Shown: positions 817 through 30,714, numbered from the stretch's first letter. The stretch is DNA of 32,000 nucleotides from Candidatus Saccharimonadota bacterium (GCA_025349965.1 CP075337.1:150001-182000), one strand, 5' to 3'. Numbers and translations: made by a program. Notes: generated by a model from the sequence alone, not told the origin.

Positions 817-831
817 TTCACATCCCTCTTA

Positions 832-840
832 TGCTATACT
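832..840 (+). promoter_or_regulatory. extended -10 promoter element (TGcTATACT) 9 nt upstream of ATG 850
   Basis: TG-n-TATACT match. The same architecture recurs at 1638-1646, 11084-11092 and 25622-25629, each upstream of an ATG without an SD. Confidence 0.5.
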
Positions 841-849
841 AAAATCATC

Positions 850-1550
850 ATGAAATCACACAAGAATTCTGTTCAAAACAACTATAATACTATTATATCA
901 CAAAACACTATAAAAAGCAAACTCTCTCTCTCTCTCTCTCTCGTAAAAGAGTAGCATCGGCTTTTACTATCGTTGAGCTCCTTATTGTCATTGTCGTCAT
1001 AGCCCTCCTCGCCGCCATCACTATCGTTGCGTATAACGGCATTACTACGTCTGCGAATGACGCGGCTCGACTGGCAGACATTAAAAATTTTGAGACTACA
1101 CTTAGAGCCAACAAAGCTGTACATCCTCAGGGTTGGGTTGTAACCCCTCCTTCCGACCCTGGAGGGGAGAACGCATTGTCTCGAACTGAATTCTTGCGGG
1201 TGAACGGCCTGAAGAGTTTTGAGGGCAAGTTATGTATTGGTCAATACGATCGGTCGAATAAAGGTTGTTACCCAGATCTTGTTGAGGGTGTTGTGCCGGA
1301 GTATGACCGGCAGAAGATTTATATATCTGTTAGTGCCGTAGGGATTCATGGAAGTCCGGCTTCGGGGGTAAATCTCAATTTCTTGTCTTGGGATGCAGAT
1401 CAAGGAAGATGGATGGGTAAAAATTTCACTGCAACCACTGAGTCTCTTGATAGTGAGGATGTGTTTGATGGCGGACGATGCACGCCAGGTGTGGAGTGGG
1501 ATCCTAGTTTTGATCAGGAGTGTAGGTACGCGAAGTATGAAGTAACATGA
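850..1550 (+). CDS. type IV pilin-like protein (prepilin N-terminal cleavage/methylation motif), frameshifted at the (CT)10 tract in this sequence; candidate phase-variable gene
   Basis: ATG 850 (frame 1) reads through the CT tract to TAG 952-954. The pilin body AFTIVELLIVIVVIALLAAITIVAYNGITTSAND... is in frame 0 (open 888-1550) and has no ATG/GTG/TTG before TTG 1176. Removing 2 nt or adding 4 nt in the tract restores a single ORF. The C-terminal region contains 4 Cys. Confidence 0.7.
922..942. repeat. dinucleotide simple-sequence repeat (CT)10C
   Basis: An uninterrupted ctctctctctctctctctctc read directly from the sequence. It is the only long SSR noticed in the window. Confidence 0.98.
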
Positions 1551-1655
1551 TTTGTTTGGGATTGAGCGGAGCGAACACAGCTTGTGCATAAAATACATTC
1601 TTCATTGATAATCCACTGGTTTATGTGATTGTCCTTATGCTAAAATAGAAGCATT

Positions 1656-3272
1656 ATGCGTGGGCAACTATATTCATTGATGACGAATCCAGATTTTAAT
1701 GGGGTCGTTGAAACAACACAGGCCGCTCGTGAGGCGGTAAAGAGAGATGCAAGTATTTTTGAGGTCGTTCCAACCGGTGTGATTGCACCGCGCGACGTGA
1801 ATGATATTCAGGCAGCGGTACGCTGGGCGAGCGAAGAGGTGGAGGCGGGGCGTCCTGTCACGCTTGCGGCTCGTGTTGGTGGCACGTGTATGTCTGGCGG
1901 CTCACTCACCGAAGGATACGTTCTTGACCTCAAGCGCTTCTTTAATTTCACTGGTCAGGTTGACCCAGCTGCGCGGACAATTCGTACGCAATCTGGCGCA
2001 ATGCACCTCACCATTGAAAAGGCTGCTAAAAAGGCGGGGCTACTGTTCGCTTCATACACCTCATCTCGTGAGATTTGTGGCATTGGCGGCATGCTTGGTA
2101 ACAACGCCAGTGGCGAGCAATCTATTAAATATGGCCCAACTAGCGCGAACGTTAATAACGTGAAAGTTGTTCTCTCTGATGGTAATGAATATGAATTTGG
2201 TCCATTAAGTCGTGCTGAAGTAGAAGATAAAAAGCGCCAGCCAACCTTTGAGGGCGAAATCTATCGCCGCATGACTGATCTGCTTGATAAGAATTCATTC
2301 ACAATTGACCGCAACCACCCTCGCACTGTAAAGAACGCAGCCGGCTATCAGCTCTGGGATTTGTGGGATGCACACAAGCAAACACTTAATCTTGGCCGTC
2401 TCTTTATTGGTGCGCAAGGGACGCTTGGTGTTATTACTGAAGCCGAACTCAAGCTTGTAAAGCCAGGTTCGCACCGCCGTATGATTGTAACGCCAATCAA
2501 GGATCTTGATAAGCTTGCAGAGGTGGTAAAGACGATGCTTGCAGAAGGCCCAGCTATCTGCGAAACCTTTGACCATTTTACGTATGAACTGGCTGAAAAA
2601 TATTATCCACAAGATGCTGACCGTGCACACGTTGCTCGCGGTAAGCACATGGTTGTCTTTTCAATTTTTGAAGGTGAGACACAAGATCAGGCGGATATTA
2701 TTGCAGGCGCTGCAAAGGAAGCCCTCGAGCATAAGGGGCATGATACATTCTGGATTGATGAAAAAGAAGTGATTGAAAGCTTCCTCCTCATCCGCCGCAA
2801 GAGCTTCGGTATGCTCCTTGAGCATCCAACGCCAAATACACGCGCCGAAGCCTTTCTTGAAGATACTATTGTTCCACTTGAACACTACGGCGACTTCCTT
2901 CGTGAACTTGAGGCAATCTTGGAAGAGTACAAACTTATTTACACGTACGCCGGCCACATTGGACACGGCAGTATCCGTCTCATTCCACTTGTTGACATGG
3001 AGGCGCCTGGTGCCGCGGAAACGGTCATGGAGCTTGAGTCAAAGGTGAATGACTTGGTGATTCGCTACGGTGGCTCTATCAGCGTTGACCATAACGACGG
3101 TATTATCCGTACTCCATTCCTTGAAAAACAGTTTGGAACTGAAATGACAAAGCTTTTTGAAGAAGTAAAGAATATCTTTGACCCATTGAACATCTTCAAT
3201 GCAGGCAAAAAAGTTGGCGGCACATATGAGTATGCCGTTGAACATATCATTCGCGAGAACGTGAACAGCTAA
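1656..3272 (+). CDS. FAD-binding (PCMH-type) oxidoreductase, GlcD/D-lactate dehydrogenase-like family
   Basis: 538 aa. The N-terminal FAD-binding pattern is VIAPRDVNDIQAAVRWA...LAARVGGTCMSGGSL, and the C-terminal FAD-linked oxidase part is DHNDGIIRTPFL...IFDPLNIFNAGK. An extended -10 TGcTAAAAT lies at 1638-1646. Confidence 0.85.
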   Translation: MRGQLYSLMTNPDFNGVVETTQAAREAVKRDASIFEVVPTGVIAPRDVNDIQAAVRWASEEVEAGRPVTLAARVGGTCMSGGSLTEGYVLDLKRFFNFTGQVDPAARTIRTQSGAMHLTIEKAAKKAGLLFASYTSSREICGIGGMLGNNASGEQSIKYGPTSANVNNVKVVLSDGNEYEFGPLSRAEVEDKKRQPTFEGEIYRRMTDLLDKNSFTIDRNHPRTVKNAAGYQLWDLWDAHKQTLNLGRLFIGAQGTLGVITEAELKLVKPGSHRRMIVTPIKDLDKLAEVVKTMLAEGPAICETFDHFTYELAEKYYPQDADRAHVARGKHMVVFSIFEGETQDQADIIAGAAKEALEHKGHDTFWIDEKEVIESFLLIRRKSFGMLLEHPTPNTRAEAFLEDTIVPLEHYGDFLRELEAILEEYKLIYTYAGHIGHGSIRLIPLVDMEAPGAAETVMELESKVNDLVIRYGGSISVDHNDGIIRTPFLEKQFGTEMTKLFEEVKNIFDPLNIFNAGKKVGGTYEYAVEHIIRENVNS

Positions 3273-4090
3273 TGAATGCTCGTCAGCAGGCAGTAAAGCG
3301 GCTGATCGAGAGTGACTTTCAGGGCGATGTACAGGCTGCGGTTGACGAGGTAAAGAAATACTTACTTGAATCATACGGCAAGCAAGAGGCGCCACTGGTG
3401 CGTCCAGCTACGCCCACTGGTCCGATTCTTTTATCTGTGAAAAACCTCTCTAAAACATACAAGCGCGGGCGTCAAAAGATTCCCGTGCTTCATGATATTT
3501 CTCTTGATATCCACGAGGGTGAGTTTGTAGCTATCACAGGTGCAAGCGGCAGTGGAAAGAGCACGCTACTTCAGCTTTTGGGTGGGCTTGATAAGCCGAC
3601 CTCTGGTGAAGTGCTCTATGATGGCATTAACCTAGCGAAGCTTTCTGATGGGAAGCTTTCGGCTTTTCGTCGGCAAACAGTAGGATTTGTCTTTCAATTT
3701 TTCTATTTGCAGCCCTTTTTACGACTTGGAGTAAATTTGGAGGTGCCCGGGATGTTTGCTCGTACTAAACGGAAGGCTCGTCATGAGGCCTCCGAACGAT
3801 TAGCAGGGCAGGTGGGGCTTGATGACCGTTTGAGTCATTTTCCACGAGAACTCTCGGGTGGGCAAATGCAGCGTGCTGCTATTGCCCGTGCACTCTTCAA
3901 CCAGCCAAAAATTCTTCTTGCTGATGAGCCAACTGGAAATCTTGATAGTGAAAACGGAAAAGCAATTATTGAACTTTTTGAGCTCATTCGCCAAGAACTA
4001 GGCACTACTGTGGTAATTGTCACCCATGATAAAGACATCGCTCGTCGGGCGGATAGAATTATTCAAGTGAAAGATGGGGCGCTGGTATGA
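3272..4090 (+). CDS. ABC transporter ATP-binding protein (MacB/LolD/FtsE-like) with ~50-aa N-terminal extension
   Basis: Walker A GASGSGKST, signature LSGGQMQR, Walker B ILLADEPTGNLD and H-loop VTHD. The start overlaps the upstream stop (TAATG). Confidence 0.92.
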   Translation: MNARQQAVKRLIESDFQGDVQAAVDEVKKYLLESYGKQEAPLVRPATPTGPILLSVKNLSKTYKRGRQKIPVLHDISLDIHEGEFVAITGASGSGKSTLLQLLGGLDKPTSGEVLYDGINLAKLSDGKLSAFRRQTVGFVFQFFYLQPFLRLGVNLEVPGMFARTKRKARHEASERLAGQVGLDDRLSHFPRELSGGQMQRAAIARALFNQPKILLADEPTGNLDSENGKAIIELFELIRQELGTTVVIVTHDKDIARRADRIIQVKDGALV

Positions 4091-6021
4091 TTCGGTTCTT
4101 TGATGCCATTATTCTTGCGCACACCAAGCTTCGAACGCATAAAATTCGCACCGGTATTACTATTGGGGTCGCTGGGATTCTTTTTGGACTTATCTTGGGT
4201 GCGATATTTGTTGTGCAGGGTGTATTTGATAGTCTTGAGCGTTTTGGCGAAGAAGGGCTGGGTGACCGTGCAATTGTTACACTCACGAAAATGAGTAAAA
4301 CGTACCCCGTATACGAGCACCTTGAAGACCAGCAGTTTATTGCCGAAGTAGAGGCGCTTCATAAGGCGTTTGTTAATAATAAAGCGACGATTGCTAAGAA
4401 GCACAATGTTCCTTATGACTCCGAATCAGAAGATCCGTCACCAATACAAGTAGACAAGAAGTCGAAGAAAAAATCTATCGATGGTCAAGACATGATGAAT
4501 ACATTTGTCATGCAGGCTGCGCAGGCGCGGCAGAATAAAGTAGCAAAACCGTTCGATGTTCACGAATATCTTGCGCCATATAAAACGGCTAAAATTCTCC
4601 CTAACAACGCAAAGCTCAGCGGGCTTGATGGTGCAAGCTTCCTCTACATGAAGGATGGCAAGGAATTTAGTACCGATGACCAGCGTAAAATCCAAATGCT
4701 TCAGATGGGCGGGGAAGATAACCCGACACTCATGATTATCAATCAGTCTATTGCTGATGCCTTTATGGGTAAGCAGTCTCGGTTCGACCCAAATAAAGGC
4801 GAGCTTCCAGTGATTGTGCCCTTTAAAGATGCAGAGAAACTTTTAAAACTCAAACCACTCAAGGGCGAAGCAAGTACACAGCAGAAGTATGATCGCCTCA
4901 AGGATGTTCGCTCCCGAATGTCAGAAATGACCGCTTCATTTTGTTATCGCAATGAGACGTCGCAACAGTTATTGGCACAGGCAAAGTCACAGCATGATGA
5001 AGCGAAGCGCAAAGTGGACGATCCAGATTACAGAGCGCCATCGCTTCAATATACACTTCCCGCTGATAATTCTTGTGGCCCTGTAGCTACAAGTAAAGAC
5101 ACGCGCACCTCTTTAGAGAAGCGTTTCATGGAGAATAGACTTGCCTATGAAAAAGAGCTCCAGGTCTACACTGGTGAACCTGAGCAATATAAAGTGAATC
5201 TGCGTGTTGTTGGTGTTTCGGGTGATACTCCTGAGGGAATGGCGTCGTTTGACGCAGCAGGTATGGTACAGAGCCTGCTTGGCTCATGGCTTGGCTACGG
5301 ACAGCAGTGGGCAATTCCAAGCGAAATGCTCCGGCAAATGCCAGAGAGTTCGCTACCGTCTTTTGTGCAGGCTGCTATGAAGAGTGACAGCGTGAAGACT
5401 AAAAATAGTATTTTAGATAACGAAGACTATCTTGTAGAATTCGGTGATGTGGCTGAAGCGCGCGCCCTATTAAAAAGAGACGGCCTTTTGAATGTAGACG
5501 CGGCTATAGGCAATAGCACTTTCGCACTGCCGTTTGGGAGCGGCATGCTCGTAGTTGAAGACCTTAAGGAATACTTTGCAACGGGAGTGTTCTGGGCACT
5601 CTTGATTGTTGGTGGTGTAGCAATTATTATTCTGGGTAGTATTATTGGGCGAGCTGTTTCCGAAGGGCGCAGGGAAAGTGCTATCTTTAGGGCAATTGGC
5701 GCCCGTCGGGCGGATATCGGTGCTATTTATGGAGTGTACGCGTTCCTCTTGTCTCTGCGCGTGGCAATTTTTGCAGTGTTGCTGGGAGTTATTTTGGCGC
5801 TTGGGGTAGAGGTGTGGTTGTCCGAGTCTGCAACGCTTGGCGCGCGGTATTCATACGCAGCAACGGATGCGAACACCGGATTCCATTTCTTTAGCCCGTT
5901 CTCTATTTATGTGCCGATTGTTCTGGCTGCAATTCTTGTATTTGGTATGATTGCTTCTATTGTGCCGGTCATTTTGAGTGCGCGACGCAATCCGATTAAG
6001 GATATGCGCGACGATACGTAA
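4087..6021 (+). CDS. ABC transporter permease, FtsX/MacB-type (4 TM) with a very large (~460 aa) extracytoplasmic domain
   Basis: ATGA overlap with the ATPase gene. There is an N-terminal TM (GITIGVAGILFGLILGAIFVV), a long hydrophilic domain, and a C-terminal FtsX-like 3-TM block (FWALLIVGGVAIIILG...RESAIFRAIGARRADI...IVPVILSARRNPIKDM). Confidence 0.8.
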   Translation: MIRFFDAIILAHTKLRTHKIRTGITIGVAGILFGLILGAIFVVQGVFDSLERFGEEGLGDRAIVTLTKMSKTYPVYEHLEDQQFIAEVEALHKAFVNNKATIAKKHNVPYDSESEDPSPIQVDKKSKKKSIDGQDMMNTFVMQAAQARQNKVAKPFDVHEYLAPYKTAKILPNNAKLSGLDGASFLYMKDGKEFSTDDQRKIQMLQMGGEDNPTLMIINQSIADAFMGKQSRFDPNKGELPVIVPFKDAEKLLKLKPLKGEASTQQKYDRLKDVRSRMSEMTASFCYRNETSQQLLAQAKSQHDEAKRKVDDPDYRAPSLQYTLPADNSCGPVATSKDTRTSLEKRFMENRLAYEKELQVYTGEPEQYKVNLRVVGVSGDTPEGMASFDAAGMVQSLLGSWLGYGQQWAIPSEMLRQMPESSLPSFVQAAMKSDSVKTKNSILDNEDYLVEFGDVAEARALLKRDGLLNVDAAIGNSTFALPFGSGMLVVEDLKEYFATGVFWALLIVGGVAIIILGSIIGRAVSEGRRESAIFRAIGARRADIGAIYGVYAFLLSLRVAIFAVLLGVILALGVEVWLSESATLGARYSYAATDANTGFHFFSPFSIYVPIVLAAILVFGMIASIVPVILSARRNPIKDMRDDT

Positions 6022-6168: not shown

Positions 6169-8055
6169 ATGGGTAAAATTATCGGAATCGACCTTGGTAC
6201 AACCAATAGCGCCGTAGCATACATGGTTGCTGGTAAGCCGGAGGTGATTGCAAATGCAGAAGGTAACCGCACTACTCCAAGTGTTGTGGCGGTGAATAAG
6301 TCAGGCGAGCGTCTCGTTGGCCAGGTTGCACAGCGTCAGCGTGTTACAAATGCAAAGAACACTATTTATGGTGTAAAGCGTCTTATTGGACGTAAGTTTA
6401 GCGATGACGAGGTTCAGAAAGACCATGACATCATGCCATACGAAATTGTTAAAAAGGGCGAAGGTGTTGCTGTAAAGCTTGGTGATAAGGACTACAGTCC
6501 TGAAGAAGTATCGGCAATGATTCTTTCAAAGCTTAAGGCTGATGCGGAAGCATTCCTTGGTGAAAAGGTCACCGAAGCGGTTATTACCGTTCCTGCGTAC
6601 TTCGATGACTCACAAAGGCAGGCTACAAAAGACGCTGGTAAGATTGCTGGCCTTGAAGTAAAGCGTATTATCAACGAGCCAACTGCGGCTGCGCTTGCCT
6701 ACGGCCTTGAAAGCAAAAAAGATGAAAAGATTGCAGTGTTCGACCTTGGTGGTGGTACATTCGACGTCTCTATTCTTGAGCTGGGTGACGGTGTCTTTGA
6801 AGTAAAGTCTACTCACGGTGATACACACCTTGGTGGTGAAGACTTTGACAACCGAATTGTTAACTTCTTCCTTGATGAATTTAAGAAAGAAAGTGGCATC
6901 GACCTTAAGGGTGATAACGCAGCAATGCAGCGCCTTAAGGACGAAGCCGAGAAGGCAAAGAAGGAGCTTTCTTCTACAACTGAATATGAAGTAAACCTTC
7001 CGTTTATTACTGCTGACGCAGAAGGCCCAAAGCACTTCGAGGTAAAACTTACTCGTGCGAAGCTTGAAGAACTTGTTGGTGATCTCATCGACCGCCTTGC
7101 AACTCCAGTTGAAAAGGCGCTCAAGGACGCAGGCCTTAAGGCGAATGAAATCGACGAGGTAGTACTCGTTGGTGGTATGACCCGCATGCCGGCAGTTGTT
7201 GAGAAGGTGAAGTCTATCTTCGGTAAAGATCCACTCAAGGGCGTAAACCCTGACGAAGTTGTAGCCATTGGTGCTGCGGTTCAAGGCGGTGTCCTTGCTG
7301 GTGACGTGAAGGACGTTCTCCTTCTTGATGTAACACCACTCACACTTGGTATTGAAACTGCTGGTGGCGTGCGCACCCCTATGATTGACCGTAACTCAAC
7401 CGTACCTACAAGCAAGAGCCAGGTATTCTCTACCTATGCCGACAATCAGCCGCAAGTAGAAATTCACGTCCTTCAAGGTGAGCGTGACATGGCCAACGAC
7501 AACAAGAGTCTTGGTACATTCGTACTTGATGGCATCGCGCCAGCACCTCGTGGTGTTCCACAAATTGAAGTGACCTTCAATCTTGATGCAAACGGTATCC
7601 TTAATGTGTCTGCAAAAGACAAGGGCACTGGCAAAGAGCAGTCAATTACCATTCAGGATAGTGGCAACCTTTCAAAGGAAGATATTGAAAAGGCGCAGCG
7701 CGAAGCCGAAGAGCATGCCGAAGAAGACAAGAAGAAGCGTGAAGCGGTTGATGCACGCAACCAACTTGAAAATGCTATCTACCAAGCCGAAAAGATGCCG
7801 GATGAATTCAAGGATAAGATTTCCGACGAAGACAAGAAGGCAATTACTGACGCTGTAGAAGAAGCCAAGAAGCACAAGGATGCAGCCGATAAGGATGAGC
7901 TTGAAGCTGCCGTAAAGGCGCTCAACGATGCAATCATGCCAATCGGTGCGAAGTTGTACGAAGAGGCTGCGAAGGATGCGCCTGCGGATGACGCGGACGC
8001 TGACAAGAAGTCTGACGAACCTGTTGAAGGTGAAGTTGTAGACGAGAAGAAGTAG
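6169..8055 (+). CDS. dnaK: molecular chaperone DnaK (Hsp70)
   Basis: 628 aa with [18 protein letters not shown] and [10 protein letters not shown] motifs. A strong AAGGAGG SD is present. Confidence 0.99.
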
Positions 8056-14722: not shown

Positions 14723-16192
14723 ATGTGGCGGATACATAGAAAAATTCAAGTTGAATGGCGTATTGCTTGCCTCTGCGCGGGGCTTCTTGTTGGCGTGGCA
14801 TTAGCCCCTGTTTTAAGGGTGAATACTTTTTGGGGCCTTGCTGCCATTATTCCTATTTGTACTCTTCTTTTAGTAGGGCGGTTTTACGCTTCTTTGCCCC
14901 TTCTCCTGCTTGCGATGCTTGCAGGGTTGGGGTATGGGTCAACGGCATACGGGGAAGGCTATGATGTGTATAAGCCTTTTATTGAGCATACTGTTACGCT
15001 TCAGGGCCGAGTTAAAGAAGATCCATCCGTAAATAGCGCAGGCTATAAATCTTTGCAGCTCGGGTCAATCCAGGTAAGGGGAAGTCCATATGCCGGGAGT
15101 GTTTTTACGCGAATGCGAACAAAAGTAACTGTTATGCGAGGTGATACTGTCACTGTGCAGGGGGTTGCCGAGGCTGGGTTTGGGAGTTTTTCCCTGAATC
15201 TTAAAAATGCTTCTATTGTGAGTGTTGAACGCCAGTCCATGGGGGATGTCGGGCGTGTTATTCGCGATTGGTTTGCGGGCCACGTGCGGAGTTTTATTGA
15301 TGAGCCACAGGCGAGCCTTGGTGTAGGATATTTAACTGGGCAAAAAAGCGCATTACCCGATGATTTTTCCGAGGCGCTTAAAATAGCGGGGCTTACGCAT
15401 GTTGTGGTTGCGAGTGGCTATAATTTGACTGTACTTGTGCGGTTGGCTCGTAAATTATTTATGCGTATTTCTAAATTTAGTGCTGCAATGGCTGCTGTTG
15501 GCATGGTGTTGATGTTCATGACCATTACTGGCCTTAGCCCAAGCATGACGCGTGCCGGAATCGTCTCCGGATTGAGTATTCTGTTTTGGTATTACGGAAG
15601 GAAAGTGCACCCAATTGTACTCTTGCTTTTTGTTGCAACGCTTACAGTGCTATATCAACCTAGTTACTTATGGGGTGACTTAGGATGGCAACTCAGCTTT
15701 TCGGCATTCTTTGGCGTGATGATTATTGGTCCACTCATGCAGCGCTACTTCTATGGCGAGGTGTCACCCGGGCTTATTCGTCAGACACTCATGGAGACTG
15801 TCGCCGCTCATATAGCAACAGTGCCAATTATTGCGCTACAGTTTGGAGTTGTTTCCAATATTGCAATTGTCGCTAACTTGCTCGTTGTTCCGCTTGTTCC
15901 GTTAGCGATGCTTTTGACGTTTATTTGCGGTATTTGGTCGGTATGCGGCATTGGGTTTTCGCAACTTATTATTTGGCCAACGAATGTGCTACTTGAATAT
16001 ATGGTTGCAGTCGTAAGGTACGTTGCAGAGATAAAGTGGGCACAGAGCGCACTGGAATTTTCTGGTAGTGTCTGGCTTTTGTATCTCGCTGCTGTTTTGC
16101 TTGTTTGTTGGTGGATGAAGCGGGCAACGAAATTGAACCTAAGAACCGGTGATATACTTAACCCCTATAAGACTGATGCGAAGGTTATTTAA
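14723..16192 (+). CDS. comEC: ComEC/Rec2-family DNA internalization channel protein, short form without the C-terminal metallo-beta-lactamase domain
   Basis: 489 aa. It has an N-terminal OB/DUF4131-like part (VTLQGRVKEDP...), a polytopic competence domain (LKIAGLTHVVVASGYNLTVL, MTITGLSPSMTRAG), and no HxHxDH motif. Confidence 0.85.
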   Translation: MWRIHRKIQVEWRIACLCAGLLVGVALAPVLRVNTFWGLAAIIPICTLLLVGRFYASLPLLLLAMLAGLGYGSTAYGEGYDVYKPFIEHTVTLQGRVKEDPSVNSAGYKSLQLGSIQVRGSPYAGSVFTRMRTKVTVMRGDTVTVQGVAEAGFGSFSLNLKNASIVSVERQSMGDVGRVIRDWFAGHVRSFIDEPQASLGVGYLTGQKSALPDDFSEALKIAGLTHVVVASGYNLTVLVRLARKLFMRISKFSAAMAAVGMVLMFMTITGLSPSMTRAGIVSGLSILFWYYGRKVHPIVLLLFVATLTVLYQPSYLWGDLGWQLSFSAFFGVMIIGPLMQRYFYGEVSPGLIRQTLMETVAAHIATVPIIALQFGVVSNIAIVANLLVVPLVPLAMLLTFICGIWSVCGIGFSQLIIWPTNVLLEYMVAVVRYVAEIKWAQSALEFSGSVWLLYLAAVLLVCWWMKRATKLNLRTGDILNPYKTDAKVI

Positions 16193-27279: not shown

Positions 27280-28812
27280 CTACTCTGTAATGTCTTTAAT
27301 GACACTAATCTTCGCGCCGAGTTTATTAAGACGATTCGCAAGATCTTCGTAGCCACGGTTAATGACGTAGATGTTCCGGAGTGTGGAAATACCAGGGGCT
27401 GCAATCATCGCAAGGAGCACAACCACTCCTGGGCGTAGTGCGGGCGGGGTGACAATCTCAGCTGGCTTCCACTTTGTAGGACCTTCAATATATACACGGT
27501 GCGGATCAACCATCTCAACCTTTGCGTTAAGTTTGGTGAGCTCCGTAAGATAGATGGCGCGGTTTTCATAGACCCAGTCATGGATGAGCGTCCTGCCTTT
27601 CGCCGTAGCTGCAATGAGCGCGAAGAAGGGGAGGTTGTCGATGTTAAGCCCTGGGAATGGGAGTGGATGAATCTTATCAGTAGACGCCTTGAGGCTGCTT
27701 TGCTTTGTAGTAATGTCTACAAGGCGAGTGTGGCCGTTGTGCGCGGCGTATTCTTCCGATAATTCATATACAAAGCCCATATTCTCGAGGACTTGAAGCT
27801 CAATTTCAAGAAATTCAATTGGTGCGCGCTTGATGGTGATTTCGGATTTTGTGACAATCGCTGCTGCAATAAAGCTCATTGCTTCAATTGGGTCTTCTGA
27901 AGGATAGTATTCGACATCAACGTTGATATCTCGCTTACCGGTTACGGTAAGTGTTGTTGTACCGATGCCATCAATCTTCACGCCAAGCTTTTCGAGGTAG
28001 AAGCAGAGGTCTTGCACCATGTAATTTGGGCTTGCGTTACGGATAATTGTTGTACCGTCATTTAGTGCGGCGGCCATAAGGATATTCTCGGTCACGGTGT
28101 CTCCGCGCTCGGAAAGGACAATCGCACGGGTCGGTTTCTTTTCCGCGACAGACGCAATGTAGCTGTCGGATGTTGTGTTTACTTCAAGACCAAATACTTT
28201 CAGGCCATCAAGGTGCGGCTCAACGGTGCGTTCACCAAGGCTGCAACCGCCAGCGAATGGGATATTGAAGCTACGATATTGGTGAAGGAGTGGGCCAAGG
28301 AACATAATAATGCTGCGCGTACGCTTAGCGGCGTTTACATCCATTTTCTCAAGCTTGAGGCGTGCAGGCGGTGTGATTTCAAGATTATTATCACCAAACC
28401 AGCGAGTCTTCACGCCAATACTATTGAGGACTTCGATGAGACGGTTTACTTCTTCTATGCGCGCGACATGCTTTAGGGTAGTTGTGCCACGGTTAAGGAG
28501 TGACGCGCAGAGGAGTGCTACTGCCGCATTTTTACTTGTCTTAGTGGTGATTTCGCCACTAAGCTTGTGACCGCCTTCGATGCGGAGATTAATAGATCCT
28601 GGTTGATTCAGGCTTACGATTTGACTTGAAAGTACGTCGCTTATTCGGGCGAGCATATCAAGGCTGATATTTTGACCACCTTTTTCAATACGATTAATGG
28701 CACTTTGACTTGTTCCAAGCTCTTTCGCAAGCTCTGCCTGTGTCATGCCTCGTGATTGACGAGTTTCTTGAATAAGGGTTCCGATTTTCTCAGCGTAATT
28801 TCGTGTTTCCAT
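27280..28812 (-). CDS. murA: fusion protein: N-terminal XRE-family helix-turn-helix domain + UDP-N-acetylglucosamine 1-carboxyvinyltransferase (MurA)
   Basis: 510 aa. Residues 1-70 read IQETRQSRGMTQAELAKELGTSQSAINRIEKGGQNISLDMLARISDVL (XRE HTH). The remainder is full-length MurA with a conserved Lys (TSKNAA), catalytic Cys-Arg loop (FAGGCSLGERTVEPH), Asp (LNIDNLPFF) and C-terminal Arg (PPALRPG). Confidence 0.88.
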   Translation of the reverse strand: METRNYAEKIGTLIQETRQSRGMTQAELAKELGTSQSAINRIEKGGQNISLDMLARISDVLSSQIVSLNQPGSINLRIEGGHKLSGEITTKTSKNAAVALLCASLLNRGTTTLKHVARIEEVNRLIEVLNSIGVKTRWFGDNNLEITPPARLKLEKMDVNAAKRTRSIIMFLGPLLHQYRSFNIPFAGGCSLGERTVEPHLDGLKVFGLEVNTTSDSYIASVAEKKPTRAIVLSERGDTVTENILMAAALNDGTTIIRNASPNYMVQDLCFYLEKLGVKIDGIGTTTLTVTGKRDINVDVEYYPSEDPIEAMSFIAAAIVTKSEITIKRAPIEFLEIELQVLENMGFVYELSEEYAAHNGHTRLVDITTKQSSLKASTDKIHPLPFPGLNIDNLPFFALIAATAKGRTLIHDWVYENRAIYLTELTKLNAKVEMVDPHRVYIEGPTKWKPAEIVTPPALRPGVVVLLAMIAAPGISTLRNIYVINRGYEDLANRLNKLGAKISVIKDITE

Positions 28813-30210: not shown

Positions 30211-30714
30211 TTAGCTTGCCTGTCCGGCCATGTTTGCACAACTTGAGCCTGGAGTACCAACACTAATGGTCGTAAGACCTGCATTTGGAGATTTGTCGTA
30301 CTGCCAGTAGCTAATTATTACGCCACCAGTTGAAGCGTCGTCAGAAGCTGCTGTTGAAGATTTTCCGCAAGCCTGAAGGTTAATGCGCTTTGTCCCGTTG
30401 TCCTTAGTAACAACAGTCGCTGGAACGCCTGTTATTGTTGAGCTGTTGTCAATGTAGTAAGCCTTTGATGTATCAGTACCAAAGCTTGCGATTGCATATG
30501 GGTAGCTACCAGTTTCAGCTTGGAAAAGCTCAATCTTCTTCTTCCATGTATTCGCAAGTGAAAGTGACGCTGAAGCGTTAGCCCTGTTTGTAATACCGTT
30601 GTAAGAAACAATCGTGATCGCAGCAAGGATAGCGATAACGACAACAACGATGAGAAGTTCTACGATAGTGAAACCGCGCTTCGCTGTATTTAGTTTGATG
30701 TCTGCAAGACTCAT
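30211..30714 (-). CDS. type IV pilin-like protein (prepilin N-terminal cleavage/methylation domain)
   Basis: MSLADIKLNTAKRG|FTIVELLIVVVVIAILAAITIVSYNG is a class III signal peptide with G-1/F+1/E+5. A C-terminal Cys pair is present. It has its own -10 TATAAT (complement of 30742-30747) and a GGGGG SD. Confidence 0.9.
   Translation of the reverse strand: MSLADIKLNTAKRGFTIVELLIVVVVIAILAAITIVSYNGITNRANASASLSLANTWKKKIELFQAETGSYPYAIASFGTDTSKAYYIDNSSTITGVPATVVTKDNGTKRINLQACGKSSTAASDDASTGGVIISYWQYDKSPNAGLTTISVGTPGSSCANMAGQAS

Follow-up and report, generated by a model that had tools for sequence, protein, structure and literature searches.

In mechanism, the closest described system to the locus reported here is that of the CT-repeat outer-membrane-protein genes of Helicobacter pylori, which include sabA, sabB and hopZ. 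For a further such gene, oipA, a published account places the CT repeats in the 5' signal-peptide region, where slipped-strand mispairing shifts the reading frame and the number of repeats decides between ON and OFF (PMC10564699). We describe a comparable arrangement in a 32,000-nucleotide stretch of DNA from Candidatus Saccharimonadota bacterium (GCA_025349965.1 CP075337.1:150001-182000), referred to throughout as the window, in which a CT tract lies within the predicted leader-coding region of a type IV pilin gene. The window gene is like the H. pylori genes in its CT unit, in the placement of the repeat within an N-terminal peptide that would be removed, and in the proposed slippage. However, the H. 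pylori genes encode beta-barrel adhesins with a Sec signal peptide and belong to another phylum, whereas the window gene encodes a type IV pilin with a class III prepilin leader. Membership of the window protein in the Hop family was ruled out on the same grounds, leaving a resemblance of mechanism only. Also unlike the H. pylori genes, the device found here is accompanied by a conserved promoter box, and pilin genes of several uncultured lineages bear it. Taking together the anatomy of the locus with its frame arithmetic, the intact pilin body, the reappearance of the device in other pilin genes, and length differences between near-identical copies of those genes, we estimate a probability of roughly two in three that this is an accessory Saccharibacterium pilin gene under a translational phase-variation (contingency) switch, the window locus probably having been caught in its OFF state.

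Two further systems offer points of comparison. In Neisseria, the opa genes carry CTCTT pentamer repeats in the region encoding the leader peptide, and pilC carries a poly-G tract in its signal-peptide region. The pilC switch is tied to type IV piliation, although pilC encodes a tip adhesin or assembly factor and not a pilin, and the pilin gene pilE is varied mainly by gene conversion from silent copies. Both opa and pilC share with the present proposal a repeat in the leader or signal region and translational ON/OFF control, but their repeat units differ from CT. Diversity-generating retroelements (DGRs) rewrite C-terminal codons and alter ligand binding, and among their targets are pilin-like proteins from the candidate phyla radiation (CPR); this too is hypervariation, whereas the CT tract would instead switch the whole protein ON or OFF. 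The pili of Nanosynbacter lyticus TM7x (T4P-1 and T4P-2) and of TM7i belong to the same phylum and protein class as the window pilin. Saccharibacteria pili are described in two reports as being needed for host binding, twitching and episymbiosis (PMC11623550, PMC9894109). The former contains nothing on slippage, leader peptides or pilin-gene repeats, its three uses of the word "repeat" referring to RCC1 repeats and to repeated passaging. Searches of the open-access literature found no description of contingency loci or of repeat-driven pilin switching in CPR bacteria or Saccharibacteria, in agreement with an earlier reading of the window made from the DNA alone (hereafter the sequence-only reading), which had taken the mechanism to be undescribed for CPR pili. 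What is added to the repeat-driven contingency loci is a new gene family, prepilin leaders, together with a new phylum that is poorly understood; the mechanism itself is classical, textbook material.

The locus comprises the following elements.

819-1633, plus strand: strain-specific segment of 815 bp with the whole pilin cassette, from blastn against two close relatives (L001 and L002)
828-845, plus strand: promoter region, comprising the box CTTATGCTATACT (828-840), the extended -10 element TGCTATACT (832-840) and an overlapping TAAAAT (840-845)
850-921, plus strand: candidate start codon ATG 850 and the coding region of the pre-tract leader, MKSHKNSVQNNYNTIISQNTIKSK
922-942, plus strand: (CT)10C tract, the slippage-prone element, from the sequence and from repeat scans
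943-962, plus strand: post-tract leader, (S)RKRVASA in the ON frame, up to the predicted prepilin-peptidase site A↓F (the arrow marks cleavage); the OFF-frame stops TAA 944-946 and TAG 952-954 lie inside it
963-1550, plus strand: coding region of the mature type IV pilin, 195 amino acids, with stop TGA 1548-1550; intact, and out of frame with ATG 850
1634-1658, plus strand: another copy of the box, CTTATGCTAAAAT, with ATG 1656 of a FAD-linked oxidase gene; right boundary of the cassette

Tandem Repeats Finder reported 922-942 as a repeat of period 2 with 10.5 copies and 100% matches, with nothing comparable elsewhere in the window, and a scan for mono- to pentanucleotide simple sequence repeats returned this tract as the sole repeat above threshold. 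With at most one mismatch allowed, (CT)6 was expected 0.08 times in shuffled sequences and was seen within the window only at 922-942. Tandem Repeats Finder also listed a 24-nt tandem repeat at 1016-1062, consisting of two imperfect copies in the helix/alpha-beta coding region, which was taken to be due to chance. Situated between ATG 850 and the pilin body, the CT tract is pure and long enough for slippage, its unit of 2 nt is not a multiple of 3, and since the run forms only the codons CTC and TCT, it encodes Leu-Ser in every frame and makes no stop itself. The open reading frame (ORF) from ATG 850-852 translates to MKSHKNSVQNNYNTIISQNTIKSKLSLSLSLVKE, that is, the pre-tract leader followed by LSLSLSL over the tract and then VKE, and ends at TAG 952-954. 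From 888 the pilin frame stays open up to TGA 1548-1550; its translation is ...RKRVASA↓FTIVELLIVIVVIALLAAITIVAYNG..., and the earliest ATG, GTG or TTG in it is TTG 1176, well past the N-terminal helix. When the gene was rebuilt in silico with 5 to 16 CT units, full prepilins of 230-236 amino acids resulted at n=6, 9, 12 and 15, and all other values of n led to a stop 0-3 codons past the tract, at TAA 944 or TAG 952. Changes in repeat number in this series toggle between a full-length and a truncated product, and the assembled n=10 corresponds to the OFF state, a single CT unit from ON. The sequence-only reading had called the tract the only long simple repeat in 32 kb, had placed ATG 850 at 9 nt after an extended -10 in a frame running to TAG 952-954, had found the pilin frame open from 888 with no start until TTG 1176, and had counted one repeat length in three as giving a full prepilin; the repeat scans and the sequence bear out the first three of these claims, and the in silico series shows the last to be exact.

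These features suggest a switch operating as follows. Transcription would start just past the TGCTATACT -10 element, and translation from ATG 850 would produce a long prepilin leader containing (LS)n encoded by (CT)n. CT units would be gained or lost via slipped-strand mispairing during replication. With n divisible by 3, the leader would be fused to ...RKRVASA↓FTIVELL, and prepilin peptidase would cut off the whole leader, including the variable LS stretch; with any other n, the ribosome would stop 0-3 codons past the tract and no pilin would be made. Given that the tract lies inside the removed leader, in-frame length variants would leave the mature pilin unchanged. We infer that ATG 850 is used, that the tract varies within the population, and that the switch is under selection, with a selective role that could be, for example, bet-hedging in attachment to hosts, in uptake of DNA, or in evasion of phages that bind pili.

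The mature pilin consists of the hydrophobic FTIVELL helix and a four-cysteine globular domain. Searched against the protein collection, the conceptual n=9 product matched P0001, titled as a prepilin-type N-terminal cleavage/methylation protein of Candidatus Saccharibacteria (E = 4e-26, 37% identity, 81% query coverage), as well as P0002, also a Saccharibacteria prepilin-type protein (E = 9e-21). Four Cys and two Trp residues that are invariant among relatives are kept in the window pilin, and the cleavage region (...RKRVASA↓FTIVELL) fits the leader, Phe+1 and Glu+5 of a type IV pilin with a class III signal peptide. Ala at position -1 is a minority form, seen in 8 of 119 relatives, among them the close relatives P0002 and P0006. 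The Pfam N_methyl model (PF07963) scored 20.0 bits (E = 4.8e-4), just under its cut-off of 21.2. An AlphaFold2 model shows an N-terminal helix at residues 10-60 followed by four antiparallel strands (predicted local distance difference test 78; predicted template modelling score 0.71), for which Foldseek found no match in the PDB at E<0.3, the best pilin being 7o5y at E of about 1. At this composition, a mature region of 195 codons would be open by chance with a probability of only ~2e-5, which argues that the body of the gene is functional or only very recently silenced; the conserved Cys and Trp residues, the modelled fold, the purity of the repeat and the prompt stops in both OFF frames were likewise counted in favor of coding or very recent silencing.

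Comparison of the region upstream of the tract with other pilin genes provides a link to repeat-bearing relatives. A -35-like TTCACA is located at 817-822, and a promoter scan scored TTCACA-17-TAAAAT at 10/12. ATG 850 lies 9 nt past TGCTATACT (832-840, with TATACT as the -10 hexamer), and the downstream oxidase gene has the same geometry (TGCTAAAAT-N9-ATG 1656); an ATG 9 nt from the -10 hexamer in both genes suggests that their mRNAs are leaderless or near-leaderless. Among the available starts, only ATG 850 opens an ORF reaching the tract. An alignment of the pre-tract DNA was obtained with the leaders of two loci with CT-tract pilin genes, L118 and L116; at the protein level, TIISQNTIKSK of the window aligns with GIIERFNEKVN and SIIAHFNEKVN. 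Leaders of the form M-x(5-25)-(LS)n-basic-[GA]↓FTIVELL were identified in the Saccharibacteria pilins P0004, P0012, P0013, P0015/P0121, P0018 and P0124, the last of these being the one further LS-leader pilin recovered by a leader-profile search that returned mostly short helix fragments. P0012, P0015/P0121 and P0018 have a common pre-tract peptide, M-I-[LS]-S-[SG]-IIAHF[NS][EK]KV[NK]S, which is also encoded by the L098/L118 gene (P0004) from an upstream ATG (MIIRGIIERFNEKVNS).

A box identical to the 13-nt CTTATGCTATACT is present upstream of the CT-tract pilin genes in L098/L118, L116/L117 and L119/L120; of the genes for the (LS)n-leader pilins listed above, four have it, two of them with a box-to-tract spacing close to that of the window. 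The distance from box to tract is 94 nt in the window, 97 nt in L098/L118, 99 nt in L116/L117 and 43 nt in L119/L120. The box sites (window 828-840; L098 at about 14176; L118 1417-1429; L116 5998-6010; L119 1476-1488) represent four unrelated Saccharibacteria contigs, in three of which the box precedes the tract by 94-99 nt, and a degenerate form of the box, CTTATGCTAWAMT, has only 3 matches across 550 kb taken from other Saccharibacteria loci. This box may represent a dedicated pilin promoter or regulator site. Together, the shared box and the leader alignment indicate that the upstream region in the window is homologous to that of working repeat-bearing pilin genes and, judged from this alignment, the ATG 850 frame is the leader frame of the L098/L118 and L116-type genes. 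We also note that L098 (14229, 14260) and L118 (1470, 1501) each have two pre-tract ATGs in different frames, the first with a GAGGG Shine-Dalgarno sequence and the second without, and that the gene caller took the second for the 33-nt allele (P0004). In the L098/L118 gene, two of the three tract-length classes could then give the same mature pilin with different leaders.

JGI metagenomes were scanned for a general pattern, (CT)7 followed by 1-31 nt and then by the codons of FT[LI][IV]EL. Among the 29 metagenome loci returned, 12 were long CT microsatellites without a pilin and 17 proved to be true pilin genes, in which a hydrophobic helix follows the motif and the tract precedes the Phe codon by 12-29 nt; viral contigs yielded no example of the CT-tract pilin pattern. 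The 17 pilin loci are of the following kinds.

L091, L098: Saccharibacteria-like, with FTIVELLIVAVVIAILAAITIVAYNG
L089, L097, L102, L103, L115: full-length pilins under genetic code 25, with several in-frame TGA codons, or with one TGA in L115
L092, L093, L096, L099, L104, L105, L107, L111: low-GC, with FTLIELL
L087, L113: classical type IVa pilin, 60% GC

The in-frame TGA of L089, L097, L102, L103 and L115 aligns with Gly of paralogues. Reading of TGA as Gly indicates that these contigs derive from Gracilibacteria/Absconditabacteria-like code-25 lineages, which would then also possess CT-tract leaders; the lineages in which such leaders were seen are Saccharibacteria, those using code 25 and further low-GC ones. 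A junction of the form (CT)nC-GTAAAA, which in the ON frame reads S-R-K-K/R, is common to the window, L091/L098/L118 and L093/L099, with a shorter form in L111, while the tracts of L097 and L103 are interrupted. Two of these loci, L102 and L103, reside on one contig (Ga0335396_10002589), as do the genes for P0012 and P0018 on one 834-kb contig. Finding two CT-tract pilin paralogues within one genome suggests combinatorial switching of several pilins. In L116 (6001-7597; L117 940-2536), a bAvd gene directly follows the CT-tract pilin gene encoding P0018 (387 amino acids), for which an ON/OFF repeat switch may be combined with DGR hypervariation; unlike at this locus, no DGR component lies near the window gene. 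CdiA_C toxin-domain (PF18451) genes were also observed to adjoin pilin genes at two independent Saccharibacteria-like loci (L006 163-561 and L116 7674-8057). We tentatively propose, with distinctly less confidence than we place in the reading of the window gene and at a little under even odds, that the (CT)n prepilin-leader switch is old, modular and widespread across the CPR (Patescibacteria), that more than one switched pilin paralogue can be present in a genome, and that the switch is sometimes found on a DGR-diversified pilin.

Comparison of equivalent pilin loci found the tract to be present and to vary in length, both between L087 and L113 and between L098 and L091/L118. The tract of L087 (31 nt) is in frame, giving MMKRS(LS)5RTGQQG↓FTLIELM, whereas that of L113 (17 nt) is OFF, its frame stopping past the tract; the flanks of the two are 99% identical upstream and 95% identical downstream. 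L098 (35 nt) and L091 (33 nt) come from one metagenome, are both located at contig ends and are identical at 93/93 downstream bases, a pattern that resembles length variants existing side by side and breaking the assembly. In L118, which stems from another study, the tract is 33 nt, compared with the 35 nt of L098. Metagenome contigs often end at the CT tract, as in L090, L091, L098 and L104, where the contig terminates at the tract or no more than about 90 nt from it, consistent with mixed tract lengths breaking the assembly graph. An upstream ATG is in frame with the pilin body at about 5 of the 17 pilin loci, the rest being out of frame with intact bodies, and a share of about one-third is as expected if tract length drifts freely. 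Dinucleotide repeats of at least 6 units were absent from 549,744 bp of sequence from 80 Saccharibacteria loci, and in 176 kb around pilin genes each such repeat was a pilin-leader repeat. The view of the sequence-only reading that the window pilin is phase-variable is supported by the (LS)n leaders, the box and the length-varying related genes, with switching at the window locus itself being deduced from these parallels.

Exact-protein look-up with the GrpE and FAD-linked oxidase on either side of the cassette led to two close relatives, L001 and L002. In the flanks these match the window at 97-99.7% identity, yet the pilin cassette is absent from both, the oxidase gene following directly after grpE and the cassette site (L001 706-760; L002 2924-2978) being occupied by ~55 bp with a hairpin terminator. 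In the window, the cassette starts with the box CTTATGCTATACT and ends just before the copy CTTATGCTAAAAT that serves the oxidase gene. The cassette is bracketed by the box CTTATGCTA (828-836 and 1634-1642), which hints at insertion or deletion of the cassette by recombination at a shared promoter motif. Among the best 80 Saccharibacteria grpE loci kept from GTDB representatives, none had a pilin gene just after grpE, and a FAD oxidase gene was found near grpE in 1 of the 80 kept loci, about 2.8 kb downstream. The best 80 GrpE relatives are almost all Saccharibacteria or Saccharimonadales metagenome-assembled genomes (MAGs), at identities of up to 77%, with a few carrying other or non-committal titles; by these titles, the assignment of the window to a CPR/Saccharibacteria-like genome, made earlier from the sequence, is right.

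A number of observations weigh against a working switch at the window locus. The two ATGs of the L098/L116-type leaders align with ACT and ATA in the window, and ATG 850, a different start from the L098-type, may be fortuitous: the 24 codons open from it would be open by chance with a probability of ~0.14 in this A-rich stretch, and as it lacks a Shine-Dalgarno sequence, its use depends on a putative leaderless start. With regard to the protein, Ala, not Gly, occupies position -1, and a leader of 37 amino acids is long for a prepilin. As two close relatives lack the cassette, the gene can be dispensed with and may be in decay. Nothing in the protein collection exceeded 37% identity to the window pilin, no relatives of its C-terminal domain were found in GTDB representative genomes or JGI metagenomes, and exact look-ups of partial ORFs of 124 and 34 amino acids returned no record; no second copy of the gene turned up in any of these collections. 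For the comparisons with other loci, tract lengths in metagenome consensus sequences can carry assembly error. Several of these points would be accounted for if the gene were a recently inactivated pseudogene, namely an accessory cassette from the repeat-bearing family that has lost its original starts and in which the tract is a relic. The strain-specific nature of the gene keeps this explanation alive, as do the lost ATG positions, the lack of a close homologue, the OFF frame of the gene as assembled and the N_methyl score below cut-off. We nevertheless consider it unlikely: the pilin body is fully open and retains its conserved residues, the tract is uninterrupted, unlike those of L097 and L103, a one-unit slip restores a complete prepilin, and the spacing of ATG 850 from its -10 matches that of the neighboring functional gene. 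Moreover, among the homologous pilin genes with repeats, some two thirds are likewise out of frame with intact bodies, which is the snapshot that a working switch would give.

Even less probable, in our assessment, is an assembly or polishing error concealing a true n of 9 or 12, with the gene in frame and the tract variable or not. Dinucleotide runs are prone to indels in sequencing and consensus calling, and the frequent breakage of contigs at CT tracts elsewhere (L090, L091, L098 and L104) indicates that assemblers struggle with them. However, no other gene of the window looks frameshifted, so that the assembly does not appear to be indel-ridden, and a 21-nt tract is short for read-spanning problems; such an error would in any case leave the tract and its slip potential in place, so that the locus would be of the same nature and only the state in which it was captured would differ. 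It is highly improbable that the pilin frame instead has a non-canonical or lost start, such as ATC 897 (ITKHYKKQT(LS)3RKRVASA↓F), or is reached by ribosomal or transcriptional slippage on the tract. The pilin frame is indeed open back to 888, and ITKHYKK resembles the MTNHYLK of P0002 (ATC ACA AAA CAC TAT versus ATG ACA AAC CAT TAC), but 4 of 9 residues agree, in a low-complexity stretch rich in A, and a tract is lacking in P0002. ATC is moreover a very poor initiator, no Shine-Dalgarno sequence lies ahead of 897, and the pre-tract DNA aligns better with the L118 and L116 leaders, in the frame of ATG 850. Slippage at the level of expression is, to our knowledge, established for homopolymers and not for CT runs. 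A phase-variation switch acting from ATG 850 is the reading that we favor.

The remainder of the window consists of dense, intact genes and four tRNAs. Those relevant to the pilin or its surroundings are as follows.

322-816: grpE
6169-8055: dnaK
14723-16192: ComEC/competence-channel gene, Pfam Competence E = 3e-38
30211-30714, minus strand: second pilin gene, intact, with leader MSLADIKLNTAKRG↓FTIVELL and no repeat tract

The second pilin has a 14-amino-acid leader ending in G and scores 29.1 bits against Pfam N_methyl, and its description in the sequence-only reading as intact and tract-free holds. Type IV pili drive DNA uptake, which lends relevance to the ComEC gene. No pilus-assembly genes were detected among ten large window ORFs scanned against Pfam, the only related genes being ComEC and the second pilin. 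Between grpE and dnaK, positions 1656-6021 contain genes for the FAD-linked oxidase, an ABC ATPase and an FtsX-type permease. Of 80 other Saccharibacteria loci, 34 have dnaK no more than 3.5 kb away from grpE, with a spacing that differs between them, and the grpE-dnaK spacer looks like a variable region. An unusual domain combination was also observed in the minus-strand ORF at 27280-28812, in which an N-terminal HTH_3 helix-turn-helix is fused to an EPSP-synthase-fold domain.

Saccharibacteria and other CPR bacteria live attached to hosts, and type IV pili mediate host binding, motility and competition. If the proposed switch operates, a clonal population would be a mixture of pilus types, with a bearing on host range, on heterogeneous co-cultures and on pilus-dependent escape from phages, and frameshifted-looking pilin genes in MAGs should not be dismissed as pseudogenes or assembly errors. 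The interest of the device lies in its recurrence across CPR lineages and in its link with the organelle that serves episymbiosis, and metagenome reads already available allow tract lengths to be counted. Should the switch prove to be widespread, these episymbionts would have their first recognised contingency-locus system, of which the window gene would be one strain-specific cassette and which would provide each cell line with a stochastic pilus repertoire affecting host choice, DNA uptake and phage avoidance.

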